From a bacterium (GTDB lineage Bacteria; RUG730): DNA of 64,000 nucleotides. This document shows, piece after piece, positions 6,700 through 35,500 of this stretch. Numbering within the stretch: position 1 is the first letter of the stretch; the number at the start of each line of letters is the position of its first letter. The position numbers were made by a program, and so were the translations under genes. The notes under the pieces are model-generated. The model was not told where the DNA came from, made no database searches, and saw only the letters and a list, made by a program, of their open reading frames with translations. Where the stretch lies: assembly GCA_031551405.1 (NCBI GenBank), contig JAVBNQ010000005.1, positions 33,743-97,742 of the forward strand, read 5' to 3'.

Positions 6700-10787
<4,088 letters not shown>

Positions 10788-10818: not shown

Positions 10819-13800
10819 TTAAAACTCCCAATTGAGTCTTACGTCAAATCCTTGTTCAGAATAATATTTTTTTGTCTCGCTTATGTACGAAAATCCTAAA
10901 CTATATTGATTTAACATTTTTATATCTAATCCAATTCTCACTCTTAAAACATCTCCTGATTCTATGCCTTTTATCTTCCAAGTCTCGCTTCCGCCAACAA
11001 ATTTTCCTTCGCCTTTCGTTTCTTTGTCTCCTACTCCAAATCCATAATTAACGTCTATTATTCCAATTAACGTACTCATAAACGAATTATCAAACACAAC
11101 TTTTTGCGCAAACTTCACTCCGATTGGAATCTCTCCTACATTCATATCAAACTGCCTTATTTCCCTCGTCACGCTCGCGTCTCCTTTCTCCATAAATCCG
11201 TCGCCATACATCTTTCCCACATTCAACCCAATATGCGGCATTATTTGTCCACACCAGCTCTCTGACTCAAATTCCTTAGCCAAGATCCCTAACTCTCCAT
11301 TCGCTCCAACATAATTCAAATCATATTTTCCTTTTGCTTCGGTCTTTAAAAACTTGTAATACGTATTCTCTTCATTCGTTGTATTTCCAAACTCAAGTCC
11401 AACATTCGCATAATATTTTTCTCCATCATAAGCTCCATACAACGCTCCTCCAAATCCTCTCACCTTCATAGTCAGAGTTTTATCGTTCGCAAACAATTCT
11501 CCTTCGTCATACTGCAATGCTCCTCCTACCAAATATTCACCAATAAACCTGTCGTATCCAAGGGTAAATCCTTTTGGCTCATATTCGTATTCTACTTTTT
11601 CTGCTTGGGCTTTCTGTTCAATCTTTCGACTAGAGTACATTCCCCAAATCTTTTGCGGATATCCCTCGTTATGTCCCAATGTCGCCATCGTACCTATAGA
11701 CGCATATTCTGTAAACGGATCTATAGTATCTCCATAATGAAAACTGTCCAATCTGCTATCCAATCTACCTCTTAGCGTCTTCATATGTTCCAAAAGAGTA
11801 TCTCTCGTACTCATCATCGCACTTCCCTCCAGCTCAACTCCCAGCTTTTCCAATTCCAACGCCAAATCCTCAGAAATCCCTCCAGTCGCATAAATATCCT
11901 CAAACATTTTTCTTTCTTTATTCGGTAAATTCGGATTATTCCTGTAACAATCGATCGCCTCCTTAAATCCAAACGCATCTTTCAATGCCATCAAATTTAT
12001 GATTAAATCAAAATTTTTACCAGTCAAATTGTTCGCATTTTCTTCATAATAAACGTCAATTAAATTGTTGAAACAAGAAAAACTACTTTTTTTCCCCGGA
12101 ATATACGAATTTTCATTATTCGTAACTATAGCATTTTCTAAAATCGTTTTACCTGTCTTTAATGATACAACATCTATAATATTCACTTGCAATATCACTC
12201 CATCTTCTACTTTTACTGTTTCAGCTGACAATTCCGTAGTTTTAGATGTACTAAAAAATGGCACAAATGTTGCATCTTTTTCAAAAATTAATTTTGTATC
12301 ATAATTCGGATTTAAAAATAATCTTTGGCTTTCTGTCATATCCAGTACACCTTCTTTTACCGTAAAACTTCCATTCGACGCTATCGAATTTTCTCCATAT
12401 AATTTCAAAACTCCTTGCCCGGTTTTCTTAATATTAACAAAACCATTTCCTGCGGATGTTTGTATTGAGTCTTTAATTTCTAAAAATTTTCCGTCATTTA
12501 TATCAAAATTTATATAGATTTTATTCCCAACTTTTTTCGCGTCCAAAAACATAAAATTTGATATTCCGTTTGCAGTATTCCCAAACCAAACGGTTTTATC
12601 ATTCGCAAACTCGTTTATTTTGAAATTCAAAGACGCATTACCTTCTACATAAATTGCTCCGCCATTTACTCCGGATGCATGATTGTTTATAAAAATTGGA
12701 TTCAAAAATTCAACACTATTTATATCACTCATAGCTAATGCAGTCATATAAATCGCTCCTCCACTTTTCGCCTCATTATTCGAAAAAATTACTTCACTAA
12801 ATTTCACATTGGAATTATCCAAATAAAGCGCTCCGCCTTTGTCTCCGGATTTGTTGCTGTCAAATATCGCCGCATCCTTAAAAACTGCCATACTATCTGC
12901 CAAAAACATTGCTCCGCCATCAACCTCTGCGCTGTTGTAACGAAACGGTACGCTTCCGTAGAACAAAACTTTCGAAGCATCAAAAAAAGCAAAACCGCCG
13001 CTGCCGTTTAACGCCGTATTTGATGTGACAACAACATTCGTAAACGTATGTGTTCCGATAAGTACATAAAGAGCGCCTCCATTTGCCTCAGCAGCATTAT
13101 TGCTTAATATCACATTATTCATGTTCGATTTAGCTAGGGGATTTGTTGATCTTAACACAGATCCGGACGTTGCGATGTAAGCGCTATCTATCGTCAAATT
13201 ATTTATTGTTAGAGTCGTTGCATCAACAAGATTAAAAAGCGAACCGCGCTGGAAAGTAGTAGTATCTTTCAAGACTCCCGATATCACGCTGTGTGAAGCA
13301 TCATTGTCATATCCTTGAACCAACACGCTTCCTCTGGCCGTATCATCAAGCGAAGCTCCTAAATGATAAATGTCCGGCTGATTAATAAAAAATGAAAAAT
13401 TAAAGCCTCTAGTACCGGAATATATATTAATTTTATTCAAGGAATATTCATCAGCCTCTTTTATTACCGTAAGCTCTACTCCGGTTTGATCGCTATCAGT
13501 AGTGAACGCATATTCGTAAACCGTCGTGGCTATGACAGATTGCACGGAATTTAGAAAATGAAGCCCGCTGAGCACCGTAGAACTGTAACTTCCGGACAAA
13601 CCGCTATCGAGGTTATCATTAACAATCTTTATGAATCTCAAAGAAACTGTATCTGTGCTTGCTTGAGTTACGAGTTTATCTGAAGAAAATGATCCGGTTC
13701 CCGTACTGTTATTAAAGCTTATGGTAAAATCAAGCTCGGAATTCGAAGTACCCAAATTATTGAATGTCACGGTTCTTGTATTGTTCAGGCTTGTGGTAAG

Positions 13801-16800
13801 GTCTAACACCGCATTATTGAAAAAATATGCGGTTCCGTTTGTATATGTGTTTGCGCCAAAAGACACCTTGGAATTTTCAAAAATAACGGTATTGGCATTT
13901 GTGTTGCCGAGACTAGTGGAAAGCAAATAATTGGATTTAAAAGATGCAAAAGAAGCTGTTCCAAAATACGCAATCGCATCACTGCCGGTAAAAGATAGAT
14001 TGGAGGAAGAGACGGTAGTAAGAGGAACATCAGTATTGTAATGCTGAAGTGTGCCTGTACTGCCAAGCTTTACGCTGTAGTAATATGAATCTCCAGTAAC
14101 ATTGAGCAATGCGTTGTTTGAAACATTATTTGTCCCGGCAAACATCTTGCCTGAAGAACTGACTATTATTTCTCCGCCGGTCTCATTTAAAGTTCCGGTA
14201 AAACCCGAACTGTCGCCGTTTATAAGCAGACGTCCGTCATTTGACTTGTTTATTGTCCCAATACCTGCTATTCCGCCTTCTATAACAACATCATTCAGCG
14301 TACCGTTAATATTTATGCTACTCGCAGCATTATAAATATCATTGCCTAATCCGGAAGCCGAATTATTAAAAAATACAATATTCCCCAAAAAGGAGTTAAG
14401 ATATAACACTCCTAAATTATATATTGCTCCGCCGTTACCACCGGATTTATTTCCTTCAAAAACGCCGGCATTTATATTGACTGTGCCTCCACTTGAATAA
14501 ATAGCTCCACCGTTGCCGGTTGCGCTATTGTTATAAAAAAGACTACCATTTGAAGTTATGGTTCTTGTGTTATATACAGCTCCTCCGGAAAGAGCAGTAT
14601 TCGACGAAAAAATAATTTCGGAATCCAAATTGAGCGTTCCGGAATTATAAATAGCTCCACCACTGGACGACGCAGAATTTTTAATAAAATTCACAGAAGA
14701 GACATTTATAATCGAATTTGCACTGTTATTATTCCATAATGCACCACCGTTAAGCGCAGAATTACTGATAAAATCACTGTCTGTAATACTGAGAATATTA
14801 GTCGCAGAAGTTGTAACATGATAAATGGCACCACCTGAACCTGTCGCAGTGTTATTTGCAAATAAACTGTAGTCGATAGTTATGAGGCCCGTGTTATAAA
14901 CTGCGCCGCCGCTGCTTGAAGAAATATTGTAACTAAACTCATTAGTGTCTATGTTTATCGTTCTTGTATTATATATCGAACCGCCGTTTACTGCCGTATT
15001 CGAAGAAAATGTGTTTCCGTAATTTAAATTTAAAAGTCCGGAATTATATATTGCACCGCCGTTTGACGACGCGCTATTTTGTGTGAAATTCGATGAAGAG
15101 ACATTTATAATCGAATTTGCACTGTTATTATTCCATAATGCGCCGCCGTTAAGTGCAGAATTACTGATAAAAGCGCTGTCTGTAACACTTAGAACATTGG
15201 TCGTAGCCGTTACAACATGATAAATGGCTCCGCCATACGCAGTAGCCTGGTTATTCATAAATACGCTATCACATATTGCTAGCGCGCTGTTGTTATAAAT
15301 CGCGCCGCCTAAACCCGTAGATAAATTGCTAGTTCCTGACGCAATATTTGTAGTAAACGCGCTTCCTGTAATTGTAGAGGAAGCAGTATTATAAATGGCT
15401 CCGCCGTTGCCAGTAGTTCCGCTTACAAATGTTGCCGTATTTGAACTAAAAACGACATTATCAACCTTTCCGCCTCCTTGATATATCGCACCGCCGCTAC
15501 CCGCGCTATTCCCTACAAACGTTGAAAAAGCTATCGCATAACCCATACCGTTTGAAGCAAAATAAACGGCTCCACCGTACATCTTGGCGCTGTTAGTTTG
15601 AAAAATAGAATTGGTTATTGATGTGAAAACATTTGAAGCATTATGATAAAATGCGCCGCCGCCATTATTGCCGCTGGTCGATAGTGAAGCATTATTTGTA
15701 AACACAGATCCATCAAAAGTTATTGTCGAACCCGCGACATTACTGTTACTGTAAATCGCGCCGCCGCTGACGGCTGCCTGATTTCCTATAAAAGAATTTC
15801 CGGAACCAAACGATAAAACCGCGTTTGTGGTGTTAAAAATCGCTCCGCCGCTGACTGTTGCCTTGTTCCCTATAAAAGAATTTCCAGAACCAAACGATAA
15901 AACTGCGTTTGTGGTGTTATAAATCGCGCCGCCCGAACCGCCGGCAGAATTACCATTGAATGAACTTCCCGTAACACCAACCGATGAATTCACTCCAGTA
16001 TTATAAATTGCTCCTCCGTTACTTGTTGCAGTATTCGTTGAAAACACTACATTTTCTATCGTAACTGATGATATAGATCCGGCAACACCTGCATTGTATA
16101 ATACGCCGCCGTTAGCCGCACTGTTTAAATCAAAAAGTCCGCCATTAATTTTTACTGTCGCTGAAGATCCTGTCTCAGAATAATTGTAAATAACTCCTCC
16201 GTTATTGGTTGCGCTGTTGGCAGTAAAAGTGCTGTTGCGTATGTCAAGCAACGCTTCCGCGTCAGAATTTTTCCCGCCAAAATTATATATTACGCCGCCC
16301 AATCCGTTTCCTGTACCTCCCAGTGCTTTATTTTCTTTAAACAAAGAGCCTTCAATAAATGTTTTGACATCCTTTCCGTAAGCGCTTGGGTTGGATGTTC
16401 CTTGCCATGTATTTTGGGCAATTACCCCGCCCTTATAGGCAGAATTTGAGATGAATTTATTTCCTGAAGAGATATGTACCTCAACTTCAACTGTAACCAT
16501 GGAGGAGACATAAACAAGCCACTGAGTCGTGCTGAAAATAGCTCCGCCGCTAGCTCCGGATGTTCCGGTAGACGAATTATTTTCAAAAGTATTTCCATAA
16601 TCAACGTATAAGTAGCCTTCATTATAAATAGCTCCGCCGCCAGATCCGGAAAAAGTGGTATTAAAATTTCCTTTAAAAATATTGTTTGATAAATGCATAG
16701 TTCCATTGTCGCCGTTAGTAATGGCTCCGCCTACTCCGGCTGAGTTGTTTTCAAAATAACTGTTTTTAATTTCGCCTTTAGCAGAATCAAACACTTCTCC

Positions 16801-17805
16801 GGCAATCCATGCATTAAGACAAACTGCTCCACTATAACCCGTACTCACGCTATTGTTAATAAAAGTTGAGCTGTCGATATAAAGTTGTCCCGCGGCATAA
16901 ACGGCTCCAGAATATCCAGAGCCAGCTGAAATATTTGTATCAAATATAGAATTTTTTATGTTTATCGTCGTATCTTTTCCACCCCCTATTGCCGGACCGT
17001 TTAACTTGGCGATATTATCTTTGAAAAGAGAGTTGTTAACGTTAAGTGTGCCGCCAAAATCTACAAAGACAGCTCCGTATATAGAGTTTGATGTTCCGTT
17101 TTCTATAAATCTAGCATTGCTTATGTCCAAGAGAGACCCAGCTCCTGTGCTGTAGATTGCTCCTCCTCCGGGATGCATTGAATTATCGGTAATGAAAGTA
17201 ACGCTATTGTTTGAAAACAAGGTAGTGCGGTTTACCGGATCAGTTGAAGTTATCGTGAGAAAACCGCCGTTATTGTATATAGCTCCGCCGTAATAATAAG
17301 CCGTGTTATTTGAAAAAGAAGAATTTGTTATAGTCATGGTGCTTCCGTTGGCATTGTAAATCGCGCCCCCATTACCTAAAGCAGTGGTAGCTTTGTTAAA
17401 ATTAAAAACAGAGTTTTTGATATTAACTACAGAATTGCTACTTGTATACAAGGCCGCCCCGGAATTTGTCCTAGTCATGCTGCTGACTTGGATATCTTGC
17501 ATATTAAGTGTTGAAGTAGAACCGAGCGACATTGTAAATCCGGAACGTGTACCTCCGCCGTTTATCATCCACAAATTTGACGCATTAGTACCTTGTATTG
17601 TTTTTGTGCTTCCGGCAGGAAAATTGGAAATGTTTGCATTCAAAACAATATCTGAGCTAACGTTTACAATGGTTATACTACTGCTTACAACAGCATTGTT
17701 GAGTTCTGCTGTATTCGAAACGTTCTCTGTTTGCGAAAAAACGTATCCTACATAAAAACAAAAAAACAGAAAAATGAAAACTTTTCCAATAAGATATTTT
17801 TTCAT
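10819..17805 (-). CDS. Giant autotransporter (2,328 aa) with polymorphic-membrane-protein (Pmp) type repeats and C-terminal beta-barrel domain
   Basis: N-terminal signal peptide; dozens of GGA[IVL] and FxxN repeat motifs typical of Pmp-type parallel beta-helix passengers; C-terminal ~350 aa ends ...DVRLNWEF (aromatic terminus typical of autotransporter barrels). Confidence 0.8.
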   Translation of the reverse strand: MKKYLIGKVFIFLFFCFYVGYVFSQTENVSNTAELNNAVVSSSITIVNVSSDIVLNANISNFPAGSTKTIQGTNASNLWMINGGGTRSGFTMSLGSTSTLNMQDIQVSSMTRTNSGAALYTSSNSVVNIKNSVFNFNKATTALGNGGAIYNANGSTMTITNSSFSNNTAYYYGGAIYNNGGFLTITSTDPVNRTTLFSNNSVTFITDNSMHPGGGAIYSTGAGSLLDISNARFIENGTSNSIYGAVFVDFGGTLNVNNSLFKDNIAKLNGPAIGGGKDTTINIKNSIFDTNISAGSGYSGAVYAAGQLYIDSSTFINNSVSTGYSGAVCLNAWIAGEVFDSAKGEIKNSYFENNSAGVGGAITNGDNGTMHLSNNIFKGNFNTTFSGSGGGAIYNEGYLYVDYGNTFENNSSTGTSGASGGAIFSTTQWLVYVSSMVTVEVEVHISSGNKFISNSAYKGGVIAQNTWQGTSNPSAYGKDVKTFIEGSLFKENKALGGTGNGLGGVIYNFGGKNSDAEALLDIRNSTFTANSATNNGGVIYNYSETGSSATVKINGGLFDLNSAANGGVLYNAGVAGSISSVTIENVVFSTNTATSNGGAIYNTGVNSSVGVTGSSFNGNSAGGSGGAIYNTTNAVLSFGSGNSFIGNKATVSGGAIFNTTNAVLSFGSGNSFIGNQAAVSGGAIYSNSNVAGSTITFDGSVFTNNASLSTSGNNGGGAFYHNASNVFTSITNSIFQTNSAKMYGGAVYFASNGMGYAIAFSTFVGNSAGSGGAIYQGGGKVDNVVFSSNTATFVSGTTGNGGAIYNTASSTITGSAFTTNIASGTSNLSTGLGGAIYNNSALAICDSVFMNNQATAYGGAIYHVVTATTNVLSVTDSAFISNSALNGGALWNNNSANSIINVSSSNFTQNSASSNGGAIYNSGLLNLNYGNTFSSNTAVNGGSIYNTRTINIDTNEFSYNISSSSGGAVYNTGLITIDYSLFANNTATGSGGAIYHVTTSATNILSITDSDFISNSALNGGALWNNNSANSIINVSSVNFIKNSASSSGGAIYNSGTLNLDSEIIFSSNTALSGGAVYNTRTITSNGSLFYNNSATGNGGAIYSSGGTVNINAGVFEGNKSGGNGGAIYNLGVLYLNSFLGNIVFFNNSASGLGNDIYNAASSININGTLNDVVIEGGIAGIGTINKSNDGRLLINGDSSGFTGTLNETGGEIIVSSSGKMFAGTNNVSNNALLNVTGDSYYYSVKLGSTGTLQHYNTDVPLTTVSSSNLSFTGSDAIAYFGTASFASFKSNYLLSTSLGNTNANTVIFENSKVSFGANTYTNGTAYFFNNAVLDLTTSLNNTRTVTFNNLGTSNSELDFTISFNNSTGTGSFSSDKLVTQASTDTVSLRFIKIVNDNLDSGLSGSYSSTVLSGLHFLNSVQSVIATTVYEYAFTTDSDQTGVELTVIKEADEYSLNKINIYSGTRGFNFSFFINQPDIYHLGASLDDTARGSVLVQGYDNDASHSVISGVLKDTTTFQRGSLFNLVDATTLTINNLTIDSAYIATSGSVLRSTNPLAKSNMNNVILSNNAAEANGGALYVLIGTHTFTNVVVTSNTALNGSGGFAFFDASKVLFYGSVPFRYNSAEVDGGAMFLADSMAVFKDAAIFDSNKSGDKGGALYLDNSNVKFSEVIFSNNEAKSGGAIYMTALAMSDINSVEFLNPIFINNHASGVNGGAIYVEGNASLNFKINEFANDKTVWFGNTANGISNFMFLDAKKVGNKIYINFDINDGKFLEIKDSIQTSAGNGFVNIKKTGQGVLKLYGENSIASNGSFTVKEGVLDMTESQRLFLNPNYDTKLIFEKDATFVPFFSTSKTTELSAETVKVEDGVILQVNIIDVVSLKTGKTILENAIVTNNENSYIPGKKSSFSCFNNLIDVYYEENANNLTGKNFDLIINLMALKDAFGFKEAIDCYRNNPNLPNKERKMFEDIYATGGISEDLALELEKLGVELEGSAMMSTRDTLLEHMKTLRGRLDSRLDSFHYGDTIDPFTEYASIGTMATLGHNEGYPQKIWGMYSSRKIEQKAQAEKVEYEYEPKGFTLGYDRFIGEYLVGGALQYDEGELFANDKTLTMKVRGFGGALYGAYDGEKYYANVGLEFGNTTNEENTYYKFLKTEAKGKYDLNYVGANGELGILAKEFESESWCGQIMPHIGLNVGKMYGDGFMEKGDASVTREIRQFDMNVGEIPIGVKFAQKVVFDNSFMSTLIGIIDVNYGFGVGDKETKGEGKFVGGSETWKIKGIESGDVLRVRIGLDIKMLNQYSLGFSYISETKKYYSEQGFDVRLNWEF

Positions 17806-18304: not shown

Positions 18305-21300
18305 CTAGAACTCCCAATTAAGTCTTACGTCAAATCCTTGTTCAGAATAATACTTTTTTGTCTCGCTTGTGTACGAAAATCCTAAACTATATTGATTTAA
18401 CATTTTTATATCGAATCCAAGCCTCAATCTTAAAACATCTCCTGATTCTGCGCCTTTTATCTTCCAAACCTCACTTCCGCCAACAAATTTCCCTTCGCCG
18501 TTCGTTTCTTTGTCTCCTACTCCAAATCCATAATTAACATCTATTACTCCAATTAACGTACTAAAAAACGCATTTTCTAACACTACTTTTTGCGAAAACT
18601 TCAAACCAATCGGCACCTCCCCTACATTCCTATCAAATTGCTTTATTTTTCTCGTCACACTCGCATCTCCAGTTTCGCTAAATCCATCGAAATATATTTT
18701 CCCAACGTTTAATCCAATATGCGGCAAAATCTGTCCACACCAGCTCTCTGACTCAAATTCCTTAGCCAAAAATCCTATTTCTCCTCTCACTCCTACATAA
18801 TTCAAATCGTATTTTCCTTTAGCTCCGGACTGCAAAAATTCGTAATATGTACTTTCTTCATTTGTCGTCACACTATAATCAAATTCGGCAATCCCGTAAT
18901 AAAATTCTCCATCGTAAGAACCATATAATGCAGCTCCAAATCCTGCTAATTTACTACTCATTGTTTTATTATTTACAAACAATTCTCCCTCGTCATACTG
19001 TAATGCTCCTCCAACCAAATATTCACCAATAAACCTGTCGTATCCAAGAGTAAATCCTTTTGGTTCATACTTGTATCCTACTTTTTCCGCGTGGTCTTTC
19101 TGTTCAAGCTTTCGACTAGAGTACATTCCCCAAATCTTTTGCGTATATCCATCGTTATATCCCAATGTCGCCATTGTCCCTATCGATGCGTATTCTGTAA
19201 ACGGATCTGTTGGATCTCCATTATGAAAACTATCCAATCTATTATCTATCCTATTTCTCAATGTTGTAACATGTTCCAACAAAGTCTCGCTCGTACTCAT
19301 CAACTCGCTTCCCTCTAGTTCAAATCCTAGTTTGTCCAACTCCAGCGCCAAATCTTGAAAAATTCTTCCAGTCATATAAATGTCCGCAAACATTTTTTTT
19401 CTTTATTCGATAAATTCGGATTATTACGATAATAATCGATCGTCTCCTTAAATCCAAACTCGTCTTTTAGCGCTTTCAAATTTATTACCAAATCATAATT
19501 TTTTCCTGTTTCTGCTGTCAGGCTTTCTTCAAAATATACATCAACCAAATTGTTGAAATATGAAAAACTACTTTTTTCTCCTGGCACATACGACGTATAG
19601 TCATCTGTCTCTATTGCATCTTTCAATACTGTTTTGCCTGGCTTAGCTGATACCACATCTCTTACATTTATTTCCAACTTAGCTCCGTCTTCTACTTTAA
19701 CGGTTTTGGCCGATAGTTTCGTAATTTCTTTTGAAGTCAAATATGGCAAATACGAACTATCACTTGAAAAATATAAAAGAGTGTTCGCCTTTTTTGCAAA
19801 CCTCAAATTTGCTCCGCTGCTCAAATCAAGAGCTCCTTCTTTTATTTTAAATGTTCCATTCGTCGCTATATTATTTTCACCTCCTAGCTTCATCACTCCT
19901 TTACCGGTCTTCTCAATATTTATCCAGCCATCTCCGGCTCCACTCGAAAATGGATCTCTGATTTCCAACATCTTTCCTTCGCTTATTTCAAAATTTACAT
20001 TGATTTTTGTATTAACTTGTCTCGCTTCCATAAACATAAAACTTGACTCGCCTTTTGCCGTATTTCCTGCCCAAATCGTTTCGCCACTCGCTTTGTCGTC
20101 TATCATAAATCTCAAACTCGCATTTCCCTCAACGTAAATAGCTCCTCCTTCTCCTTCAATCGCTTTGTTGTTCGTGAACACTGCGTTCCTTATTTCCAAA
20201 TTATTTTCACTCGTCACTGACATCGTCGTCATATATATCGCTCCTCCTAATCTTCCCTCATTTGAATCAAAAATCACCTTCTCTCCCCTAAACGTCGCTG
20301 TAGAGTTCCTCATATACATCGCTCCTCCTACTGCGCTCATGCTCAGGTTTCCTTCAAATAATGCCGATCCTTCAAAAAGAAACGAGGAATTCACAGCAAG
20401 TATTGCTCCACCATCCAATCCAGATTCGTTTTTTCTAAAAATAACATTATCCTTAAACTCTACTCCTCCATACCTGCCTAAACCAATTCCACTTGAGTAA
20501 ATAGCTCCCCCAAATGAATTAACACTTTTATTCTCTTGAAATACTGTTTCTCCGGCGAAAATCGCAATAGAATTATTCAAATAAAATGCTCCGCCACCGA
20601 CTTCTGCTTTATTAAATTCAAAAATAGACGTACCCTGAAATGTTGCAGTTGAATCAATAAGATACAGAGCTCCCCCGGAAATATTCGCTTCATTATTTTT
20701 AAAATAGGCATAGTTTTCAATAGTTAATTTTGAAGCATCCGAGTAAATCGCTCCGCCATTTGTATTTGCCGTATTGCCAGAAAATAAAACACCGTTTTTT
20801 AAATTAAGAATAGATCTATCTACGTTTAATGCTCCTCCGTATGCCATTAAGCTGTTATTAGTCTCGAATTTAGTTGCTCCTTCAAAGCTTAAAACCGTAA
20901 GTTCCAAATGTATAGCGCCTCCAGCAAGTACCGCCGCATTACTCGAAAATGTTGAGTCACTTTTAAAAGTCGCTGTTGACTTAGATAAATACATTGCTCC
21001 ACCGGCAGCGAGGGTGCTTTTATTGGTGTCAAATTTTGACATGCCTTCGAACGTTAAATCTGATCCAAAAGAAAATAACGCTCCTCCATTTGACGTTGCA
21101 GTGTTGCTACTGAAAAAAGAATCTGCTCTAAAAATTCCTATTGAACTTGACAACATCATTGCTGCCCCTGAAGCTCCATTGCTATTGTTATCAAATAATG
21201 CTATCCCTCCAAAATCTAGTTTTGAAGAACTGGCATACACAGCTCCGCCATTATTGGAGGAAGATGAATTTTTTGAGAAAGATGTTAAATTTTGAAAACT

Positions 21301-23874
21301 AACTGTTGACCCCGTCAAATACATTGCTCCACCGCTTGTTTGGGCTGAGTTATTTTCAAAACTAGCCTCAGCTTGAAAAGTTGCTGTAGAATTCAATAAA
21401 TATATTGCTCCGCCAGAAACTTTGGCTTCATTAGCTTCAAAGCTCGCATCTCCTCCAAACTCTAATTTTGCGCTTTCCAAAAACAACGCATCACCAGACG
21501 AAACTAATGACTTGTTATTTTTAAATTCTGCGCTAGTAAAACTCAAACTAGATCGATTTATCGGAGCCACATAAATAGCACCCCCTGAACTAGTACTTTT
21601 ATTGTTATCAAACAAAGCATGCCCTGTAAAAGAAATATTGGAAGCATTATATAAGTGAAATACGCCACCGGATTTATCTGTTTCATTATCTCTGAAAGTC
21701 GCGGTTGAAAAAACAATCTCAGAATTATCAAGATATCCAACTCCTCCTCCAAACGTTTGTAAACTGGTAGCTTTATTTCTTTCAAACAAAGCTTCGTCTA
21801 AAAATGTCAATTTTGAGTTTCCAATTATATAAATAACACCGCCAGGCGCTTTTGCGGCGTTATCAGCAAACAGAGCAGTTGAGTAAAATGTTACGCTAGA
21901 TTTGTCTAGATATAGAGCTCCTCCTCCAAACTTTGTACCAGGATTACTTTGACTCGTACTCTTATTGCCAATAAACTCAGCACCTCCTGTAAATGTAGCG
22001 GTAGATTGATTTAAATACATCGCTCCGCCCGATTGAGTTGTTTCGTTATTTTTAAAGGTCACAGTAGAAAAAGAAATATATGTTGAAGTACTGTATATGG
22101 CGCCACCGTTGCCTGTTCCAGTCACTTTATTCCCTTCAAACCAAGATTCTGAGGAAAATGTAGCGGTAGATTGAAGCAAATACATCGCTCCACCATTTAT
22201 CTTTGCTTCGTTATTTTTAAACGTCACCGCCTAAAAAGAAAGATACGATGAATTACCAGCATAAATTGCTCCACCACTTGACACTATGCCCGTACTTTTA
22301 TTCTCTTCAAACCAAACTTGTCCGGAAAATGTAGCGGTAGATTTGTCCATATAAATTACTCCGCCTGACTGATTAGATGAATTGTTGCTAAATGTTGCAG
22401 TTGAAAAAGAAAGGTATGACGAATTAGCTGCATATATTGCGCCGCCGTTCGAAGTTGCCGTATTGCTCGAAAAAAATACATTTTCTTTCAATATAGCCGT
22501 CGACTTATCTAAATATATCGCGCCGCCGTTTAGTTTAGATTCATTTTTTTAAAAAATACATCTACAAAAGAAAGATACGATGAATTTCCTGCGTATATCG
22601 CTCCTCCGCCCCCTACTGTAGCAAGAGACTTATTTCCTTCAAATAAAGAGTCTCCGGAAAATGTAGCGGTAGATTTGTCCATATAAATTGCTCCGCCACT
22701 TGTTTTAGATTCATTGTTTTTAAGAGAAACATCATCTAAAAAATAGAGTTTTGATTCAGTTTTTGCATTAATCGCTCCACCGGCCGAACCTGTACTTTTA
22801 TTCCCTTCAAATAAAACGTATCTATTGAATGTTGCAGTTGCATTAACGACAACTAGCGCTCCTCCGATCTGATAAGCTTCGTTATTTTTGAATGTTACAG
22901 TAGAAAAAGCAATCGTTCCATTTGCTAAATATACTGCGCCGCCGCCACCCATAATAGTTGTATTTGTACTTTATATTACCTTCGAATAGCGCTTCTCCTG
23001 TAATATTAGTGTTGGATCCAGATAAATACATTGCTCCACCAGTGTTAACTGATACATTATTTTTAAAAATCACATCTATAAAATCTACTTTTAGTCCACT
23101 GCCGGCATAAATCGCTCCGCCGCCGCTTGTTAAACTTTTATTCCCTTCAAATAAAGTAAAATCTGTAAAATTTAACGATGAGTTTGCAATTGAAATACTA
23201 ACAGCTCCTCCTGAGAGCAATGCGGAATTATTTCTAAATGTTACGCTTGAAAATAAAATACTCGATTTTTGAGTTGATGACGGGTTTGTGCCGCCTCCGG
23301 AATATATTGCTCCTCCATTTCCTCCGGATCCGGCTTTATTCCCTTCAAATAAACTTGCCCCTGAAAACGTAACGCTAGAACCCTCGATATAAAACACACC
23401 CCCATATCGCATACCGTTATTATATAAAAACTCCGAATTATTAAAATTGACACTGGACTGATTAATATAAAAAACCACTCCATCCGGATCATTACTGTCT
23501 ACGCTTGCCGAAGAAAAAATTATACTATCTATAGTGACTACGCTATTATTATTAACTTTAAAAATTCTTCCCTTCACTGTCGAGCTACTGACGGTCATCT
23601 TAGTAGTTGAGGATTTCAAAATAATGTCTTCAAGCCCAGAAATTGGAAAACCACCAGAAGCAATGATGCTTTTGTCATCTTGATACAAAATAACACTGTC
23701 TCCTGTCAATAACACACCCGCATTCAAGAATTCTTGCAAAGTGTCATAATAAATTCCACCTACCGGCTGTCCGCTTCCAATATGATACTCTGTTGCAAAA
23801 ACTTTCGCATTAAACGTAAAAAAGAAAAGCAAATTACAGAGAATTAGCGAAATACATTTTTTTAAATTTTTCAT
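18305..23874 (-). pseudogene. Pmp-repeat autotransporter paralog, disrupted by two homopolymer frameshifts, one other frameshift and one in-frame TAG
   Basis: ORF-track fragments 22882..23874 (with signal peptide), 22530..22952, 22231..22491, 19372..22227 and 18305..19393 form one colinear Pmp-like gene; the last fragment is a near-copy of the beta-barrel domain of 10819..17805. Confidence 0.7.
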
Positions 23875-26530: not shown

Positions 26531-29500
26531 ATGTTTATAAAAAATTTAAAAATTACAAAATGTTTGGCGTCATTCTTGGTTGTAACGACTTTTACATGTT
26601 TTATCTTGAATGACTACACCTATGCCCAAACTCCTGCAAAAATATTGCCTTCTATCAGCGAATTACGTAAAGCAAGGGGATATGACAAAACTTTTACAAA
26701 CATCGGTTTTAGAGAAGAAATTGCGATTAATCAAAGCGCTGATTTATACGCTAAAAAAATGAACACAAATTATGCTAATCAGCAAACAAAAATTGAAAAC
26801 AATTTAAAAGCAAAAAAAGAATCTGCTTGGGCAACTGCCGAGAAAAAAACAAATGAAATAAAACAAACTGCCACATTAAATAGAGAACAATTAAATGTAA
26901 ACTATGCAAAAAATCTTGCAGATTACAAATCAACATATTCTGTTCAAAAAGCTAAACTTGCAAGCGATTTTGACATAAAAGTTGCACAAGTAGACAAAAA
27001 TTTGGCGAGGCTTAGAGACGTATCCGCAATAGCTGCAAAAAAAATTGATACTCAGTCCGGTATTAACAAAATAGGCAGCGTAGTAGCCTCTGGTATTATG
27101 AAACCTGTACAAGGGATTATGAGCGGTCTTACATCTGTAGTCGGTTTCTTTTCAGGAAAAGATAATAACCCTCTTACAAAAATAAATGACAAAATACAAA
27201 ACATTGATAAAGATTTGGCTGATTTAAAAAATTCTAAAAACGACAATATGGCTTCTATTCAAAAAAATACTGCTGATCAAATAAAAAATTTAGAGAAAAA
27301 AAAGAAAGATCTGCTTGAAGCTAAAAGTGCATCACTTACAAATATGGACAAAAGAAATGACGAAACTTTGGCAAATATGGAGCTTTCATTCAAAAATGAA
27401 ATAGAAGCCGTAAATAATCGTGAAAATTCTTACATAGCGAGTTTGGTGAATAGTACAACTGATGAACTTGCAAAACTAGACGGTGAAATAAAATCCAGAC
27501 TTGAAGATTTGTACACACTTACAAACTCAGAGCTGGAAAATTATTTATTTGGAGACGATGGCTTATTTAAGAAAGCTTATGAATACGATGACAAAACAGC
27601 CTTACGAAATTTAAAGTCTGATCAAGATAATTCCAATCGTGAAATTCAAACTGACGAAAAAAGCGGTGGTTATATTGGAAATTTAGCTAACTATATGGGA
27701 GTGGAAGAGCAAAAAAGGGCATTTGCAAGTAATCAATACTTAGAAAAAGCAGAAAAACTGCTTTTGTCAGGAGCTAGTGATGGTACGAGAAGAGCCGGTG
27801 AATTTGCTGCAGCAGCCGGTGTAGTTAGCAAAGATGCCCAAGTTTTGATGCCACGCGATTTTTCTGATGCAAGTTTGGCTCGAAGCGGCGCTATAGAGCT
27901 TAATATGGATCAAGGCGAAGCCGCAGGCACCGTCCGAGATAACAAAGTAGCAAATATAGACGCATCATTCTTAAAATCCCAGCAAGAACTTGCCGACTAT
28001 TCTGACAGCATAGTCAAATATTCCGACGAAGTTACCGGTTTTCTAGAGGATACAATCAACAATTTTGCTGATAATTCGAAAAATGAGATGAATGATTTTA
28101 CCAACAAAACGGTCAAAAAGAATGATGAAATCAATCAAAAAGAAATACAAGCGCTTTTGGCATTTGTAAAAGAACTGCAACAATATATGGATATGGTCTG
28201 GCCGGAGTCACAATCTGCAGGCTATGAGCGAGCTACTGAAGCATTAAAAGAAGCCGCTGAATTATACTTGAACGCGTCAATTGATACCCTTGCTATTATA
28301 CTTGCTGTAGTCTTAGGAATTGTCGGTGGATTAGTTGCGACTATTATAGGTGCAATATTTCTTATAACTACAGGAATTCCTATGATATTTTCCGGTATTT
28401 TAACTCCCTGCGGAATTGTACAGGTAGTGGCCGCTGTAGCTAGCTTAATAATCGGTATTACCGGAGTAGCTCTTGGTATTTGGGGAATTATATCAGCCAT
28501 AAGTGAACGTGAACAATTAAAAACTGCGCTCGAAATAGCAAGTAATAATGTCAAGGTTTTAAACGATTTGTTGCCGGATCCATCAAAAAAAGACTGGCCT
28601 GAGAACACACCTAGTGAGTACAAAGTTTTCATGGATGCAGAAAAAAATTATAATTCAGCTATGGGCCAATTTAAAGTAATGTTTTTCAGACGTTTCGGCA
28701 TAGAAGGCCTAAAAAAAGTCAGAAACAAAATAAACCAAATAAACAGGTTATTAGGAAAAAAAGGCATCTCTGGACTGACTCATGACGAATTATTAAAATT
28801 ACAAGAACTACTCTTTTTCTTCAAACCTGCTTCTAACGATAAACTCCTAAAAAGATCGATGGAAGGACTGAAAAATACTTTTAAATCATATCAAGAGGCT
28901 TTAGAAAACTTCAAAAAATCCACAAAGACTGTAACATACACATTAAAAGAGCTCAAAGATGGAAGCATTGTAGAAACTACTTACACAAAAACTATTTGGG
29001 AGGCTTATCAAGACAAACAATTTTGGGGAGTTGTCGCCAGCGAATTAGATATGGCTCTAAACAATGCATACGTATTTGATATCGACGCAAATGGAAATGT
29101 AATAAAAGTAGATAGATCTGATGGATCAACTTACACTGAAGAATATAAGGATCCAGAAACCGGAGAATGGAAAACAGTTACTAAGAAGGGTTGGAGTGGC
29201 TTTGCAAATAAAGCATCTCAATCTGGAGATCGTTTTTTTTCTGCTATAAATAATGGCTTCACTAAGTTTATAGATGCAACAGATGCATTCTTCTCTGGAG
29301 TAATATCTGGTGTAATATACGGGGTTACTTTTGGTCACGTCAAGGTAGATAAATTTCCTACTTGGGTCAAGGGGATAACGACATTTATTCCAAATTTCTT
29401 CAAAGCTATAGTAGATATGACTTTTATGGGATATAACCTCACCTTGCATCTTGCAAAAGGGTTATCTCAGAATGGTGTTTTGAAAGGTTTACAAGATTTT

Positions 29501-32500
29501 GCTCTCGGAATGGCCTCTTTCCCTCTTGGCATTATTGAAAATGCGATTGGTATGAAACAGGGAACATTCTTAGATCTATTCAAAGGAAAAACTCACAGTG
29601 CAAAAGAAATTTGGGGCGAAGGAGAATACTGGAATCCCGGAGCAGCTGCAGGAACTTTAGGTTTCACTATTGTTATGATGATGGGGAGCCCTTCCGGAGC
29701 TTCTTCTATAAAAGCTTTTGTTAGTAATATTAAATCAGCACTTTCGTCAATATGGAACGCTATTAAGTATGTTGCAGTGAATGGAATATGGGCCGGATTA
29801 AAAGCTTCTTTCAAAGTTGTCGGATCTGCTCTAGGAAAAATAATAAATTGGACGAAATCCCAATTCAATTTCAAAACCGTACTAGGGAATGGTTTTAAAG
29901 CCGGAGTTAGTGCAGTTTTACATAACGTTTTATCAGGTGTTAAAATTGGATTAGGGGGTTTAGGAATCGCTGCTGTAGCTGTCTTAGGCGCAGCAGGGAG
30001 TATAGCAGGTAGCATAGTATTTGGCTTAGGAAAGAGTTTACTTACAGCGACTAAAGCTCTTGCCACTACTGCCTCTAAATATCTTAAAAAATTCTATAAA
30101 GAATCTTCTATAAAAAGTCTATTTAAATGGGCTTCTAAACAAGTTACTCCTAGAAAAAGTGCAGGAGCATTGCTTGCAGCCATATTATTAACCCCTGTTT
30201 TAATCGTATCTCACGTATTAGGTATTACACAAGCCATAAAACAGCTTCATACAGGTTTTGTAGGTTTAAGAAAAGAATATAAAGCAATGCAAAAGGTATA
30301 CAATTCTACCGGTTCTTATGTACAAACACGAAATGGAATGCCTGTAAACTTAAGGACTCAATTCATTCAAAATACTATCTCTTATGGACTGCAAGTTCCT
30401 CAAGTTTTAATTAACACTGTTATGTCTGTAGCGTTAGCTCCCCTTCTTATCACTAGCCCCCTTCTTTTTATAGGAGTTAAAATAGGTCACGTTTTCTGGT
30501 CGGAAGTTATCTTAGGGCAGAGAAAATTACGGGCGATGCAAAAAGAGCAGCAAAAAGAGCAATCTCGTGGAGCCATCAACTCTCAAAAAACCCAAATTGA
30601 ATCCGAAACCAATGCTCAAGCAGTGCAAGCTTCAGCAAGAAATCTTCGTGATCACGCGAAAGCTTTCGGTATAGAAGTTTTCGACAAAACAGGAAAAAGC
30701 TTAGGAGTAGTTAGCTATAAAGTCTTCATGGAAAAAATGATTAGTGGAGAGATATCCAGCTTTGCAGTAAATCAAGGAGGCTCTAAAAACGCAATATCGC
30801 TTGGTATCGGAGCACGCGAAGCCTTGACTAGAGATTATTTGGCATCACGAGATAATGCCAGTTTAACAAGACTACTTGCCCGTAATAACGGTAATAATAA
30901 ACTAGAGGCTTTGGTCGCGGCAGAGCGAGTTCAACGAAGCACCATAATCTTAAGAGAATATAACGCACAAAGACAAAAATTAACAGGTCAGTCAGCTATT
31001 AATTTTCTAGAACAAATGCTTAATCAAAATAAGTTACGAAGCAAGGTGGCCACTTCTGCACAAAAAGCCTTTTTAAAAATGCAAAATGCAGCTATAAAAA
31101 CAGAGCTCGCAAATCTACATGCTCAAGCACTTGCTGCAAGAATAGAATTCTTATTTAGTCAATCTAAGCTTGATCCTAAGATTGTTGAGCTACTTGATTC
31201 TAATTTAGGAATATTAGATTTCTCAAAAATAAAAGCCGGTGGTCTAACACGTAATGCTGCAGAAACACTTGTAAGACAAATGGGAGATATTTTGGGAGTA
31301 GTTTCAAAAAAATATCAAGAGAGCTGTTCAACAGGAAACAAACAAATCATAAAAGACTCAAGCTCTGTAGTCTCAGCAAGATTTAAAGAAATAGTAAACA
31401 GCGAAAAATTTCAAGAAATTTTAAAGATTGCAAGCCTAGCAGAGAGGCAACAAAAAATAATGGATTATATGAAAGAGTTGAAAGCAGTTGAAAGCGCTAC
31501 TCCTCCAACTGCTTTGGAAAGACTAGTAATTGATAGGATGACGCAAGTTCTTAGAGATAATCCTTCAATTACTCCTAAACAGCTAGCAAAAATGGAAGTC
31601 CAACTGCAAAAAGAAACTGTTTTAGCTCTAGAAACCGGAGCTCTTGTTTATAACGGGTTTACAAGTTATAACAACATTGCTGACGGTATAAAACAACTAG
31701 GCGTGCGACCTGATTTAGAATTAAATAACCAAAGAAAAGCAGTGAAAGCTACGACGGCATTAAATGAAATTGAAATTACAGCTCATCATCAGACTGTTGT
31801 TAGCCAACTTAACGAAATCATAGCAATGAAACCTGAACTCTTCAGCAAGAACCAAGGTCCCGCAGAAGGAAGAATTGAGGCACGAAGAAAGGCTAATTCA
31901 GATTTTATAGCTTCAGTACGCGAAAAATATAAAAATGACCCAATTGGCAAAATACTTGCAAAAAGACTTGAGTTTTTATTGGAAATCAACGTTTACAACA
32001 ACCAAGGAATTTCTGCAAAGGATATGAAGAATTTCACAAGTCTCCTCAAAGAAGAAGTTACTTTCGCCTTAAAATCCGGCGATATAGTTCCTGCTAATGG
32101 GCGTTTTATCTCGCAAACTCAAATGGAGGCATACCTAAAAACTTTTGCAAGCGAAGCCGAACTTATGCGGCATGCACAAGAAACCTTCAAAGTTCAAAAA
32201 CAAAAAGAGGCTTTAGATAAAAAATATGAGGGGAAACAGTTTGAAAAATATTCTAGAAGCAAAAGAAACGCAGCCCAAGATTTAGTCAAAGAATGTCTTG
32301 TTATAGGAAATATGGGAGAAAAAGAAAGACAAACTGCTATTGAAGCTCTTCAAAAACAAATATCTGATATAAAAATTGAAAGAGACACCGAAAGTCCAAG
32401 CATGAGAAAATTATTAAATCGACAAGTTGATGCATTAGAAATGTTGGTAAGCTCAATAAAAAACAACGATGTTGCGAGGATAAAAGAGGCTGTAACAGCT

Positions 32501-35500
32501 TATTTTTCAAAGGGAGGAGCGAGCAGTAGCGTGACAGCTGAAGCTTTCGTAGCAAGTATAAAATCTGTTATAACCGTTACAGAAGCATTTGCTGAGAGAG
32601 TAGATCAACTAAGTCGAATTTCGAAGGATCACGAAATTCATAAGGCTGATGGAAAATTAAGCATGCAAGACTTCCAAAAAAGAGAGGTCGGTGCAGAAAC
32701 CAAAGCAACATTAGTAATCTTAAAGGCTCAACTGGACGCATTAAAAGACACCTCAACAAGGCCAATTAGTTTAGAAACTTATAAAGAATATGCTGCTTTA
32801 AGAGAAAAAATTGAAAAAAGCGATGCTTACAAAAATGCAACCACTGAACAAAGAACAGCTGCGACCACTGCAACAACACCACATGAAATACTGGCGGCCG
32901 CACTCAATCCACTAGAGGCTGTGACATATAATAAACTTATGGAACAATTTAAAGGCTTAGACTTAAAAAGTGAGCAAAGCTTTAGGGACAGCTTTAACCA
33001 AGCTATACGAGAGAAAATTAATTTGTTTGTAGCGGAAGCTGGATCTTCGATGCCAGTCGCAACAATAGTAGATTACTTACGAGGTAATCGCTCTCGTATC
33101 CCAACAGATCTAATGGCTAGTTTAGAGCAACAAATTGTTAATAAACTTAAAGGACGCGAGGCAGTAACAGCTAACGATCTTACTAGAGATCAGGCTTTAC
33201 TTGGAACTCTGCCTCAGTCTTCAATTAGAGAAGTGTTAGCTGCTCGTCCTGACTTGCATAGGCTGATACTTCAAAAAGAAATATCTTATTTGCAAGCAAA
33301 AGAAACTGTTCCTGCTGCTGTCCAAGAAGCGAATAGGCAAGTAAACGAAACCCTAAGTCTTACTGATGCAGCTGCTCTTGTCAAACTAAAAGAAACAATC
33401 GCAACAATTAGCGATCCGACTTTAAAAAAACAAATAACCGCACTTATTAAAGGCAAAGAATTAGGAAAAATTACTTTTGCGAGATTGAGCGAGTTAATCG
33501 AACAAACAAAATCAAGTCCGGAAGCCACTCAAGCGTTAAACTTGATTGTTTCCAGACGAATGAATCAGCTACAAACGTATAAGAACGCAGCCGGAAGTGC
33601 CCAAAAATCTGCCTCTAATGCTCTTATTGCCGAATATAAAAAACTAGAAGACTACATTATGAAAGGTGTAGAAAAAGCATCCGCTGGATATTTGGAAATT
33701 TTAAATAGAGAGCATCTACCTCTAATGGAAAAAATGTATAAAATAATGGAAGCAGCCGGTATTCCAAAAGCAGAGATTTCTACTTTTGATCTATCAACTG
33801 GCAAAATAGGAGATAAAACTTTTTATCAAAAAGTCCAGGAACTTGCCAGTGCAAAAAAATTAACTTCAGCCGAATATATTCAAAGAGAATTATTCGGAGA
33901 AAACCATCAACTAACACATCTTCAAGCTGACGCACTCAGAGTCGTAGGGTTAAAACTGATAGAAGGACATAACAAAATAGGTGACGGAACCATAACAGCC
34001 AGGACAGCTGCACTCACTGACCCTAACTTCAATTTTACACAAAAACAAATCTTGATGATGGCAGCCAATGACCAAGGAATGATTGCTGCTCTTGGAATGG
34101 GAGGAGGAAAAACCAGAGTTTATCCTACTGTAATAGGCTCTATGATGCAAAAAGGAATAGGCGGAGGTATTGGTGAAATTCTGGTTTCTTCAAAACAAGA
34201 AATCGCTAATATGTTAGGCAATAAAGATTACATGGAAACCTTTTATGGTGTTAAAATGCTTGATGGAACCAAGTTGCATGCAGAAAATAAATTAGGAGAA
34301 ACACTCGCCAGCCACAAAAGAGACGGTATAAAAGTCATAGTTGTCTTTGACTTAGAGACAAGAGGACATTTGTCTCACGAGATCAGAACTAATAAAAGCC
34401 TGCAAATCCTAGACAAAATAGATATTTTGGCTATTGACGAAGCTGATGCCTTATCTCTAAAACAACAATCTTTTATTAATGCAGAAAGGCTGCCAGCAAC
34501 CGATCTGATTAAAAACCAAGTAGCGAAGATTCTAGAAACTTACGAAAAATTGAAAGGTGAAGGTGCAGAAAAATTTGATGCTAAAAAAGGCGGATTTGCT
34601 GACAAAACCTTTTTGGATGCAATGTTGGCCGAGCTAAAAACCAACGCTGAATTCCAAAAAGATCAAAGCTCTTACCTTAAAAAATCACTTTTTAGTTTAA
34701 GTGACAAAGAATGGACCGGACAAACCAGCGCAATGATAACCCAAGTTTTGAGAGGTCGTGCCGAGGTGCTTTCCGGGGAAACAAAAGGTGGATTCAAAGT
34801 AGACACTGTTGGTGGTATTCAAGTCGGAGTTCAAGATGGAAACAACTACAACTCAGTTGCCGTTCAAATTATAGATGCATTCCAAAAAAATGCACCACAA
34901 GGAGTTACTTTCTCAATCGAAAGATTTAAAACAACGACAGGAGCGAGTGTATCAGAATTTGCTGCTACGGTTTCAAAAACTACGGTTGAATCTGCCGCGC
35001 AAGAAATTCTTACCAGGGCACCCGGAGTTAGATTGCACGTTTTCGGAGGGTCAGGAACAACAGGCGGCGCTAAACGTATCAGCGAAGCTGTCACTGCTCC
35101 GGTAGCAGAAATCTCCGAAGCCTCTTTTGCTAACTATGCGTTCAATACGCAAGTACAAAAACCCGGACAGCGAACAACAGATGTGGTGGCTGCATTTGCC
35201 GGGAAAGCCTTGGAGGGTAAATGGGGACGACTTATCATTCAATCGCAAGAGAATTTAGCAGAAAACCTCTTGGCTACAATAGAAAAAGTAGCAGGCCCGG
35301 AAGCTGCAGCAGCATTTAAAAATGCGGCTAGCACTAGCGGCAAAGTTGAACGAATCTCAGATGTACAATTCGCGATAGAAAAATTAGACTCAGCCTTTGT
35401 CGATCCGGTTTTCATAAAAGGACAAGGAGGTGGATTCATAAGTCTCAACCAAGCTATTACAGACGGGTTAGTAAGATCTAATGGGAAAAAGTTTTTTGAA

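Follow-up and report, generated by a model that had tools for sequence, protein, structure and literature searches.

A probable type Va autotransporter with a very long Pmp-type beta-helix and old coil duplications in its passenger

The window analyzed here, 64,000 nucleotides (nt) of contig JAVBNQ010000005.1 (assembly GCA_031551405.1), contains a very large gene, hereafter gene A, that is likely to encode a type Va autotransporter. The protein would display a Pmp-type beta-helix of great length and probably serve as an adhesin, and the internal DNA repeats of the gene go back to old duplications of whole coils. On this reading, a Sec signal peptide would carry the protein to the periplasm, a C-terminal 12-strand-type barrel (amino acids (aa) ~2051-2328) would insert in the outer membrane and the helix preceding it would fill the pore. 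The passenger of ~1,900 aa would then be shown on the cell surface as a long right-handed beta-helix, with one Pmp coil per ~27 aa and a lineage-specific middle module interrupting it, and would act as an adhesin or surface-interaction protein. Growth of this helix would have occurred by in-frame duplication of whole coils, 84 nt corresponding to one coil and 399 nt to about five.

Gene A is a complete coding sequence on the minus strand at 10819..17805. According to the list of open reading frames (ORFs) of the window and the translation, it is one uninterrupted ORF of 2,328 aa with an ATG start, and a Shine-Dalgarno-like GAGG is located ~6 nt 5' of the ATG. The original prediction had described this ORF with the right length and coordinates and had left the minus strand unmentioned. 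Glycine, serine and asparagine each make up about 12% of the protein. GGA[ILV] was counted 30 times against 0.5 expected from residue shuffles and FxxN 49 times against 16 expected, FxxN is followed by GG[AVSG]x at a distance of 5-16 residues at 25 places, and the spacing of GGA is mostly 25-32 aa. The Pfam family Chlam_PMP (PF02415) matches the protein at 2.3e-50 and TIGR01376 at 6e-39. The first 24 residues (17734..17805, minus strand), taken from the translation by eye, look like a signal peptide: they read MKKYLIGKVFIFLFFCFYVGYVFS with a cut before Q and continue with QTEN, and they contain two lysines and a hydrophobic core, the residue before the Q being a small one. A scan for promoters and terminators found sites no more numerous than in shuffles.

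The Pmp modules can be interpreted confidently, on the basis of the structural model, as coils of a right-handed parallel beta-helix, that is a three-stranded beta-solenoid. An AlphaFold model of aa 590-1140, the zone with both repeats, reached a mean predicted local distance difference test (pLDDT) score of 91.2 and a predicted template modelling (pTM) score of 0.91 and contains only beta structure, in which three short strands recur every ~27 residues, so that the beta-helix passenger for which the original prediction had proposed a structure prediction is indeed modelled as a beta-solenoid. Every match of this model in Foldseek is a right-handed beta-helix, including PL6 lyases, Ag43, TibA, Vag8, pertactin, UpaB and tailspikes. 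This agrees with the published view that Pmp motifs are beta-helix coils and that Pmp-like autotransporters also exist outside Chlamydia (PMC11166332).

Along the passenger, a first Pmp-type beta-helix block comprises ~aa 100-1150 (14356..17508, minus strand) and is defined by FxxN…GGA[ILV] modules every 25-32 aa as well as by the model. It is followed by a middle module without Pmp motifs at ~aa 1151-1560 (13126..14355, minus strand), which is collinear with the nearest relative P0002 at 51-62% identity and is conserved among giant outer-membrane repeat proteins of Elusimicrobiota/Endomicrobia, as seen by eye in P0003-P0020 and P0041. A Pfam scan of the middle module gave no family at E <= 1. 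The second beta-helix block at ~aa 1561-1735 (12601..13125, minus strand) is based on the positions of GGA and FxxN and on a Chlam_PMP match of 1.9e-12 to aa 1561-1961, and Beta_helix PF13229 matches weakly at aa 1563-1729. The Pfam scans used for gene A include the Pmp middle domain PF07548, which matched neither the whole protein (E <= 0.01) nor aa 1-620, 1131-1560 or 1561-1961 (E <= 1).

The C-terminus has the sequence and the modelled fold of an autotransporter translocator. In a scan of the isolated last 375 aa, PF03797 was found at 6.9e-28 with 98.5 bits against a cut-off of 26, covering positions 1-254 of 255. The same family went unreported when the whole 2,328-aa protein was scanned, and in the Pfam annotation precomputed for the identical database protein, PF03797 is likewise missing and the Pmp repeat stands alone. 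A filter artefact explains why the whole-protein scan missed the domain, and long repeat proteins of biased composition, such as that of gene A, are probably under-annotated as autotransporters. For modelling with AlphaFold, we used an alignment of the last 408 aa of gene A with 18 distant relatives and with gene B, a decayed paralogue next to gene A that is described below (alignment A1). The resulting model of the last 408 aa (pLDDT 85.3, pTM 0.81) begins with ~85 helical residues, continues with a 22-residue low-confidence loop and ends with long antiparallel strands up to …NWEF. The helices form a junction and linker at aa 1941-2024 (11734..11985, minus strand; model residues 21-104), the last of them being a 25-residue helix (model residues 80-104) that precedes the barrel, with the loop in between. 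The beta-barrel translocator itself is located at aa 2051-2328 (10822..11655, minus strand; model strands at residues 131-407), and its strand number was taken from DSSP, not from the 3D model. The best matches of this model in the PDB (Foldseek, 1e-16 to 1e-9) are all classical autotransporter translocators: EstA at 1.3e-16, NalP with a target-normalised template modelling (TM) score of 0.82, and also AaaA, EspP, BrkA, AIDA-I and Hbp. Sequence identity to these solved translocators is only 12-16%, and PDB sequence searches with the passenger and with the C-terminus found no relatives. The protein ends with …RLNWEF, and F is the consensus final residue in alignment A1. Upstream of the presumed pore helix we found the motif YR…L…R..LD.IY.TG (positions 35-55 of alignment A1, aa ~1955-1975 of gene A, ~11881..11943 in the window), in which R35, R45, Y52 and G55 vary hardly or not at all within the sparse autotransporter subgroup in the alignment. 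This helical motif could be a junction or an autochaperone-like element.

The original prediction had made its case dependent on a barrel in the C-terminal ~350 aa, and a barrel is what the PF03797 match, the model and the similarity to EstA predict there. Together with the excess of motifs, the two Pmp family matches and the modelled beta-solenoid, this bears out the label of a Pmp-repeat autotransporter. From the same sequence features we infer that the protein would be exported and displayed on the surface.

Both repeats in gene A are real duplications. A self-BLAST of the gene revealed exactly two significant direct repeats. The first is an 84-nt tandem duplication at 15753..15933 (minus strand) with units at aa 625-652 and 653-680, for which Tandem Repeats Finder gave 2.15 copies of period 84 with 89% matches and the self-BLAST 89.7% identity over 97 nt (E 1e-30). 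Between the units, 75/84 nt and 25/28 aa are identical, and exact matches extend over at most 17 nt. The second is a pair of long direct repeats, identified by repeat finding, BLAST and codon alignment, with a gene-proximal copy at 14955..15254 (~aa 851-950; aa 858-950 in BLAST) and a gene-distal copy at 14556..14855 (~aa 984-1083; aa 991-1083 in BLAST), both on the minus strand. These copies are ~300 nt each, begin 399 nt (133 aa) apart and share 78.6% identity over 280 nt (E 6e-49), which is made up of a ~100-nt core that is at least 90% identical and of flanks at 55-75%. An exact-repeat scan placed the longest perfect repeat of gene A in this pair, a 47-nt tract at 14696..14742 (minus strand) that equals 15095..15141. 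Other neighbouring 28-aa modules of the gene have a pairwise DNA identity of only 23-50%, compared with 0.89 for the tandem units. Taken together with the E-values of the self-BLAST, this low identity indicates that the two repeats go beyond the background periodicity of the protein.

The original prediction was therefore right in seeing two direct repeats in 10819..17805, and its tandem had the correct unit (84 nt, 28 aa) and peptide and nearly the measured location (~15740..15920), but at 89.7% identity and 2.15 copies it is neither near-identical nor an array. A second direct pair also exists close to the coordinates proposed, but at 14556..14855 and 14955..15254 its copies measure ~300 nt instead of ~200 nt, the spacing is 399 nt instead of ~420 nt, and near-identity is restricted to the ~100-nt core.

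In the passenger model, each 28-aa tandem unit is one three-stranded coil (model residues 36-63 and 64-91, with strands at 39-56 and 67-84), and the 133-aa offset of the long pair corresponds to about five coils. As both duplications are in frame and coil-sized, the helix was lengthened without being broken. The divergence between the copies gives an impression of their age. The synonymous divergence (dS) of the 84-nt tandem copies is 0.36 and the nonsynonymous divergence (dN) 0.05; for the whole long pair dS is 0.82 and dN 0.18, and for its core (aa 868-905 / 1001-1038) 0.34 and 0.07. With this synonymous divergence and a dN/dS between the copies of about 0.1-0.2 (0.13-0.22), the copies have long been kept as protein and were neither homogenised nor lost. 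This pattern is the opposite of that of an actively recombining array, and the repeats are old in-frame duplications of whole coils under purifying selection, without sign of an active variation switch.

Some observations weigh against the reading of gene A as an adhesive autotransporter with old repeats. The Foldseek E-values of the passenger are weak, with 9e-4 as the best value. The similarity of the N-terminus to a Sec signal peptide was judged by eye, and the last linker helix (aa 2000-2024) is presumed to span the pore. An adhesin role seems most likely by analogy with chlamydial Pmps, which act as adhesins (PMC2997323), and with passengers of the Ag43 and pertactin type. In models of chlamydial proteins the Pmp motifs point to the helix interior (PMC11166332), and interior-facing motifs are uninformative about a ligand. 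Finally, the 47-nt exact tract within a repeat of 78% identity is the sole feature that hints at exchange between copies, and it may reflect a small gene conversion or local constraint.

A comparison with other proteins shows on which timescale the passenger changes. The protein identical to that of gene A in the NCBI database (P0001) is a singleton cluster and present once in public data, on a single contig of 164,664 bp, although an exact look-up of the protein among public contigs gave no record. Next in similarity is P0002, whose best local match covers 74% of the query at 45% identity; P0002 is a protein of 3,523 aa encoded at 10001..20572 of L001 (GCA_031553505.1, JAVBLP010000012.1). In the full alignment, aa 1-1815 of gene A are collinear with aa 1-2004 of P0002 at 38.6% identity, and the identity per 100-aa bin is 43-62% up to aa 1600. 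Insertions or deletions of at least 8 aa are concentrated in gene A aa 600-1115 (10 of 13), and in each of these ten it is P0002 that has the additional residues. Since they cluster in the repeat zone, the number of modules changes there between species and on an evolutionary timescale. P0002 itself contains, by eye, several near-repeated units of ~130 aa (…FTSGITGNGGA.YN…KYFISSSTFLGNT…) where gene A has one copy. Its barrel belongs to a different subfamily from that of gene A, and a DNA methylase/Vsr pair and a serine recombinase are located just downstream of its gene.

The original prediction had gone further and proposed that the repeats drive length or antigenic variation of the surface protein by recombination. 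According to this alternative, the repeats would be RecA-dependent or slipped-strand substrates that change helix length or epitopes within a population, as a form of contingency or antigenic variation. That both repeats are in frame and comprise whole coils is compatible with it, as gain or loss of a copy would leave a foldable helix, and the 47-nt exact tract, the concentration of length differences to the nearest relative in the repeat zone and the adjoining paralogue with an 82%-identical 1.4-kb segment point in the same direction. However, a high-identity array or a slippable homopolymer is not what we found in gene A: each repeat is present just twice, exact identity extends over no more than 17 nt in the tandem and 47 nt in the long pair, and a phase-variable tract could be ruled out, as the homopolymer list contains no run >7 nt in gene A. 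The tandem copies, in which 10% of the positions differ, share no more than 17 nt of exact identity. A dS of 0.36-0.8 speaks for long persistence without homogenisation or loss, dN/dS indicates that both copies were conserved as protein, and a second allele is absent from the databases searched (protein, genome and metagenome scans). With two copies each, dS values of 0.34-0.82, low dN/dS and short exact runs, the proposed role in variation is not supported by the data, and we regard active variation as unlikely.

The second alternative concerns gene B, the remains of a tandem paralogue that adjoins gene A on its upstream side (18305..23874, minus strand) and was recognised from ORF fragments, Pfam matches and junction sequences. 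It is split into a 330-aa piece that includes a signal peptide, three Pmp pieces (140, 86 and 951 aa) and a 362-aa PF03797 barrel. The junction sequences reveal four lesions, all on the minus strand: a +1 T insertion at ~22972 (GGTAATA[T]AAAGT), a frameshift in a T6A7 tract at ~22544..22550, an in-frame TAG at 22231..22233 and a -1 frameshift in an A8 tract at 19393..19400, at the junction of passenger and linker, where gene A reads AAAGAAAGAAAAATG. The 3' segment of 1.4 kb (18309..19727, minus strand) is 81.7% identical in DNA to 10823..12242 (1,424 columns, E 0 in BLASTN) and represents the longest direct repeat associated with gene A. Over the 362 codons of linker plus barrel, dS between A and B is 0.54 and dN/dS 0.22, and in the upstream part of the segment dS is near 1. 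The purifying selection on the B barrel shows that gene B worked during most of the time since it arose and that its decay is recent. Assembly error was considered as the sole cause of the lesions and is unlikely, as one of them is a TAG substitution and one a non-homopolymer insertion; moreover, a nearby 14-kb ORF is intact despite four 8-nt runs, which makes such an error improbable for all four.

It could be imagined that slippage in homopolymers switches A and B on and off, a mechanism that has been proposed for chlamydial pmpG genes, and that B is at present "off" through its A8 tract. In support of this, the frameshift at 19393..19400 is one base short in the A-run compared with gene A, a second lesion lies in the T6A7 run, the B barrel was under purifying selection, and poly-G phase variation discussed for chlamydial pmpG offers a precedent (PMC4488443). 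However, gene B also carries the non-homopolymer 1-nt insertion and the in-frame TAG, so that no single slippage restores it. Runs of at least 8 A or T are common in the AT-rich window (47 in total, many inside intact genes), and gene A has no run >7. Hence, we consider this kind of switching very unlikely.

Less probable still is a passenger-swapping system, in which the 82%-identical 1.4-kb 3' segments of A and B, which comprise junction, linker and barrel and lie in direct orientation 7.5 kb apart, would serve as recombination handle and the coil repeats would add finer length changes. If this were true, the expressed A passenger and the silent or decayed B would exchange or delete segments, and Elusimicrobiota would have a strategy of surface variation that has not been described for them so far. 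The shared segment is a longer recombination substrate than the internal repeats, but an identity of 82% is low for homologous recombination. An active role of the A/B pair in swapping or switching seems unlikely. The least probable alternative, that the passenger is not an adhesin but a carbohydrate-active enzyme with a beta-helical fold, for example a depolymerase or polysaccharide lyase, can appeal to the PL6 alginate lyases at the top of the Foldseek list (E 9e-4 to 7e-3) and to phage tailspike depolymerases, but it is hardly tenable with TM-scores of 0.16-0.26 in long, poor alignments (root mean square deviation about 22 Å), with Pfam and NCBIfam scans that gave no lyase or hydrolase family, and with Ag43, TibA, Vag8, pertactin and UpaB in the same list, which shows that the matches reflect the common solenoid fold.

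The preferred reading of gene A as an autotransporter with old coil duplications also has to be seen in its taxonomic context. Those relatives at the top of the list that carry a source name are giant Pmp-repeat proteins from metagenome-assembled genomes (MAGs) of Endomicrobia/Elusimicrobiota, and farther down the list there are hits in other phyla, with Methanobrevibacter and planctomycetes among them. The best matches of the adjacent PurH, at 60-63% identity, are in two MAGs named Elusimicrobiaceae/Elusimicrobiota and in one unclassified "bacterium" MAG. Based on the named relatives and the PurH matches, we conclude that the window, which has a GC content of 31-41%, originates from a poorly sampled Elusimicrobiota lineage. 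To our knowledge, this phylum has almost no cultured members, and a literature search for a connection of Endomicrobia or Elusimicrobia with autotransporters or Pmps found nothing relevant.

The translocator of gene A is rare in sequence databases. A word-indexed search of 5.8 billion proteins with linker plus barrel returned only the gene B fragment, and HMMER over 1.84 billion representatives found 102 relatives at E <= 1e-3, of which the best one other than the query itself has 41% identity. All nine relatives tested (9/9) are ordinary PF03797 proteins, some of them with Pmp repeats. Judged by these searches, the linker-plus-barrel of gene A is an uncommon, sparse subgroup of PF03797. A genome-collection scan with the C-terminal 474 aa of gene A found nothing, and the same is true for metagenome scans with the middle module (as protein) and with an exact 33-mer of the repeat core. 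A genome scan for PurH with 10-kb flanks detected a gene A homologue in 0 of 80 loci, and the A/B pair is accordingly lineage-specific at its PurH-adjacent position.

Two neighbouring ORFs deserve mention. On the same strand as gene A, a 468-aa ORF (9381..10787, minus strand) starts 31 nt past the gene A stop; it has a sub-threshold TPR_2 match and no NCBIfam family, and from its position it may be co-transcribed with gene A. Beside the P0002 gene there is no equivalent of this ORF, and the upstream neighbour there is a small OmpA-family gene. At 26531..40768 (plus strand) lies an intact ORF of 4,745 aa, for which a whole-protein scan gave no match in Pfam, NCBIfam or PDB. Scanned in 800-aa pieces, it gave only a sub-threshold match to a DEAD/DEAH helicase (E 0.002) at ~aa 2504-2644, a zone in which a Walker-A-like motif GMGGGKT and IDEADAL can be seen by eye. 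Its N-terminal third is signal- or transmembrane-like, rich in coiled coils and multi-pass in look, and a homologue search with aa 2300-3300 returned nothing, itself included. This ORF may be more unusual than the gene A autotransporter.

With gene A, a very long Pmp-type autotransporter that is unannotated in public data is documented in Elusimicrobiota, and the anatomy of its repeats shows how beta-helical passengers lengthen via in-frame duplication of one or about five coils. The understanding of autotransporters remains unchanged by this, and the interest of the gene would rise if the repeats or the A/B pair were actively variable in populations. All parts of the architecture are known already; new is the member itself, from an under-sampled phylum and with a translocator of a sparse subgroup.

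Compared with known systems, gene A has the organization of classical type Va autotransporters, that is a signal-peptide-like N-terminus, a beta-solenoid passenger, a helix followed by the PF03797 barrel and an aromatic end, and its barrel model superposes on those of EstA, AaaA, EspP, NalP, BrkA, AIDA-I and Hbp. In contrast to pertactin with its 16 coils (PMC11166332), gene A would have ~60-70 coils, an estimate from ~1,900 aa divided by ~27 aa in which the middle module is assumed to be coiled, and it differs from known type Va proteins in that a junction of several helices (~85 residues), which carries a conserved motif of its own, precedes the barrel. With the chlamydial Pmps it shares the repeated GGA[ILV]/FxxN beta-helix coils and the autotransporter C-terminus (PMC11166332) as well as the occurrence of tandem paralogues, one of which, here gene B, is frameshifted in a homopolymer (PMC4488443). 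Unlike them, gene A has a lineage-specific middle module in place of the PF07548 domain, its host phylum is Elusimicrobiota and not Chlamydiota, and the protein is two to three times longer. The giant Pmp-repeat proteins of Endomicrobia/Elusimicrobiota (P0002-P0020, and P0041 of Endomicrobium proavitum) have the same motif grammar and a non-Pmp middle module, whereas in many of them the C-terminus consists either of an autotransporter-like barrel with an OmpA domain (PF00691) behind it or of a barrel of another subfamily. A further counterpart is A0A1C7PBX1 of Akkermansia glycaniphila, a Pmp-like autotransporter with 43 predicted coils (PMC11166332), which by its description in the literature also combines a beta-helix of Pmp coils with a classical barrel; gene A comes from another phylum and probably has more coils.

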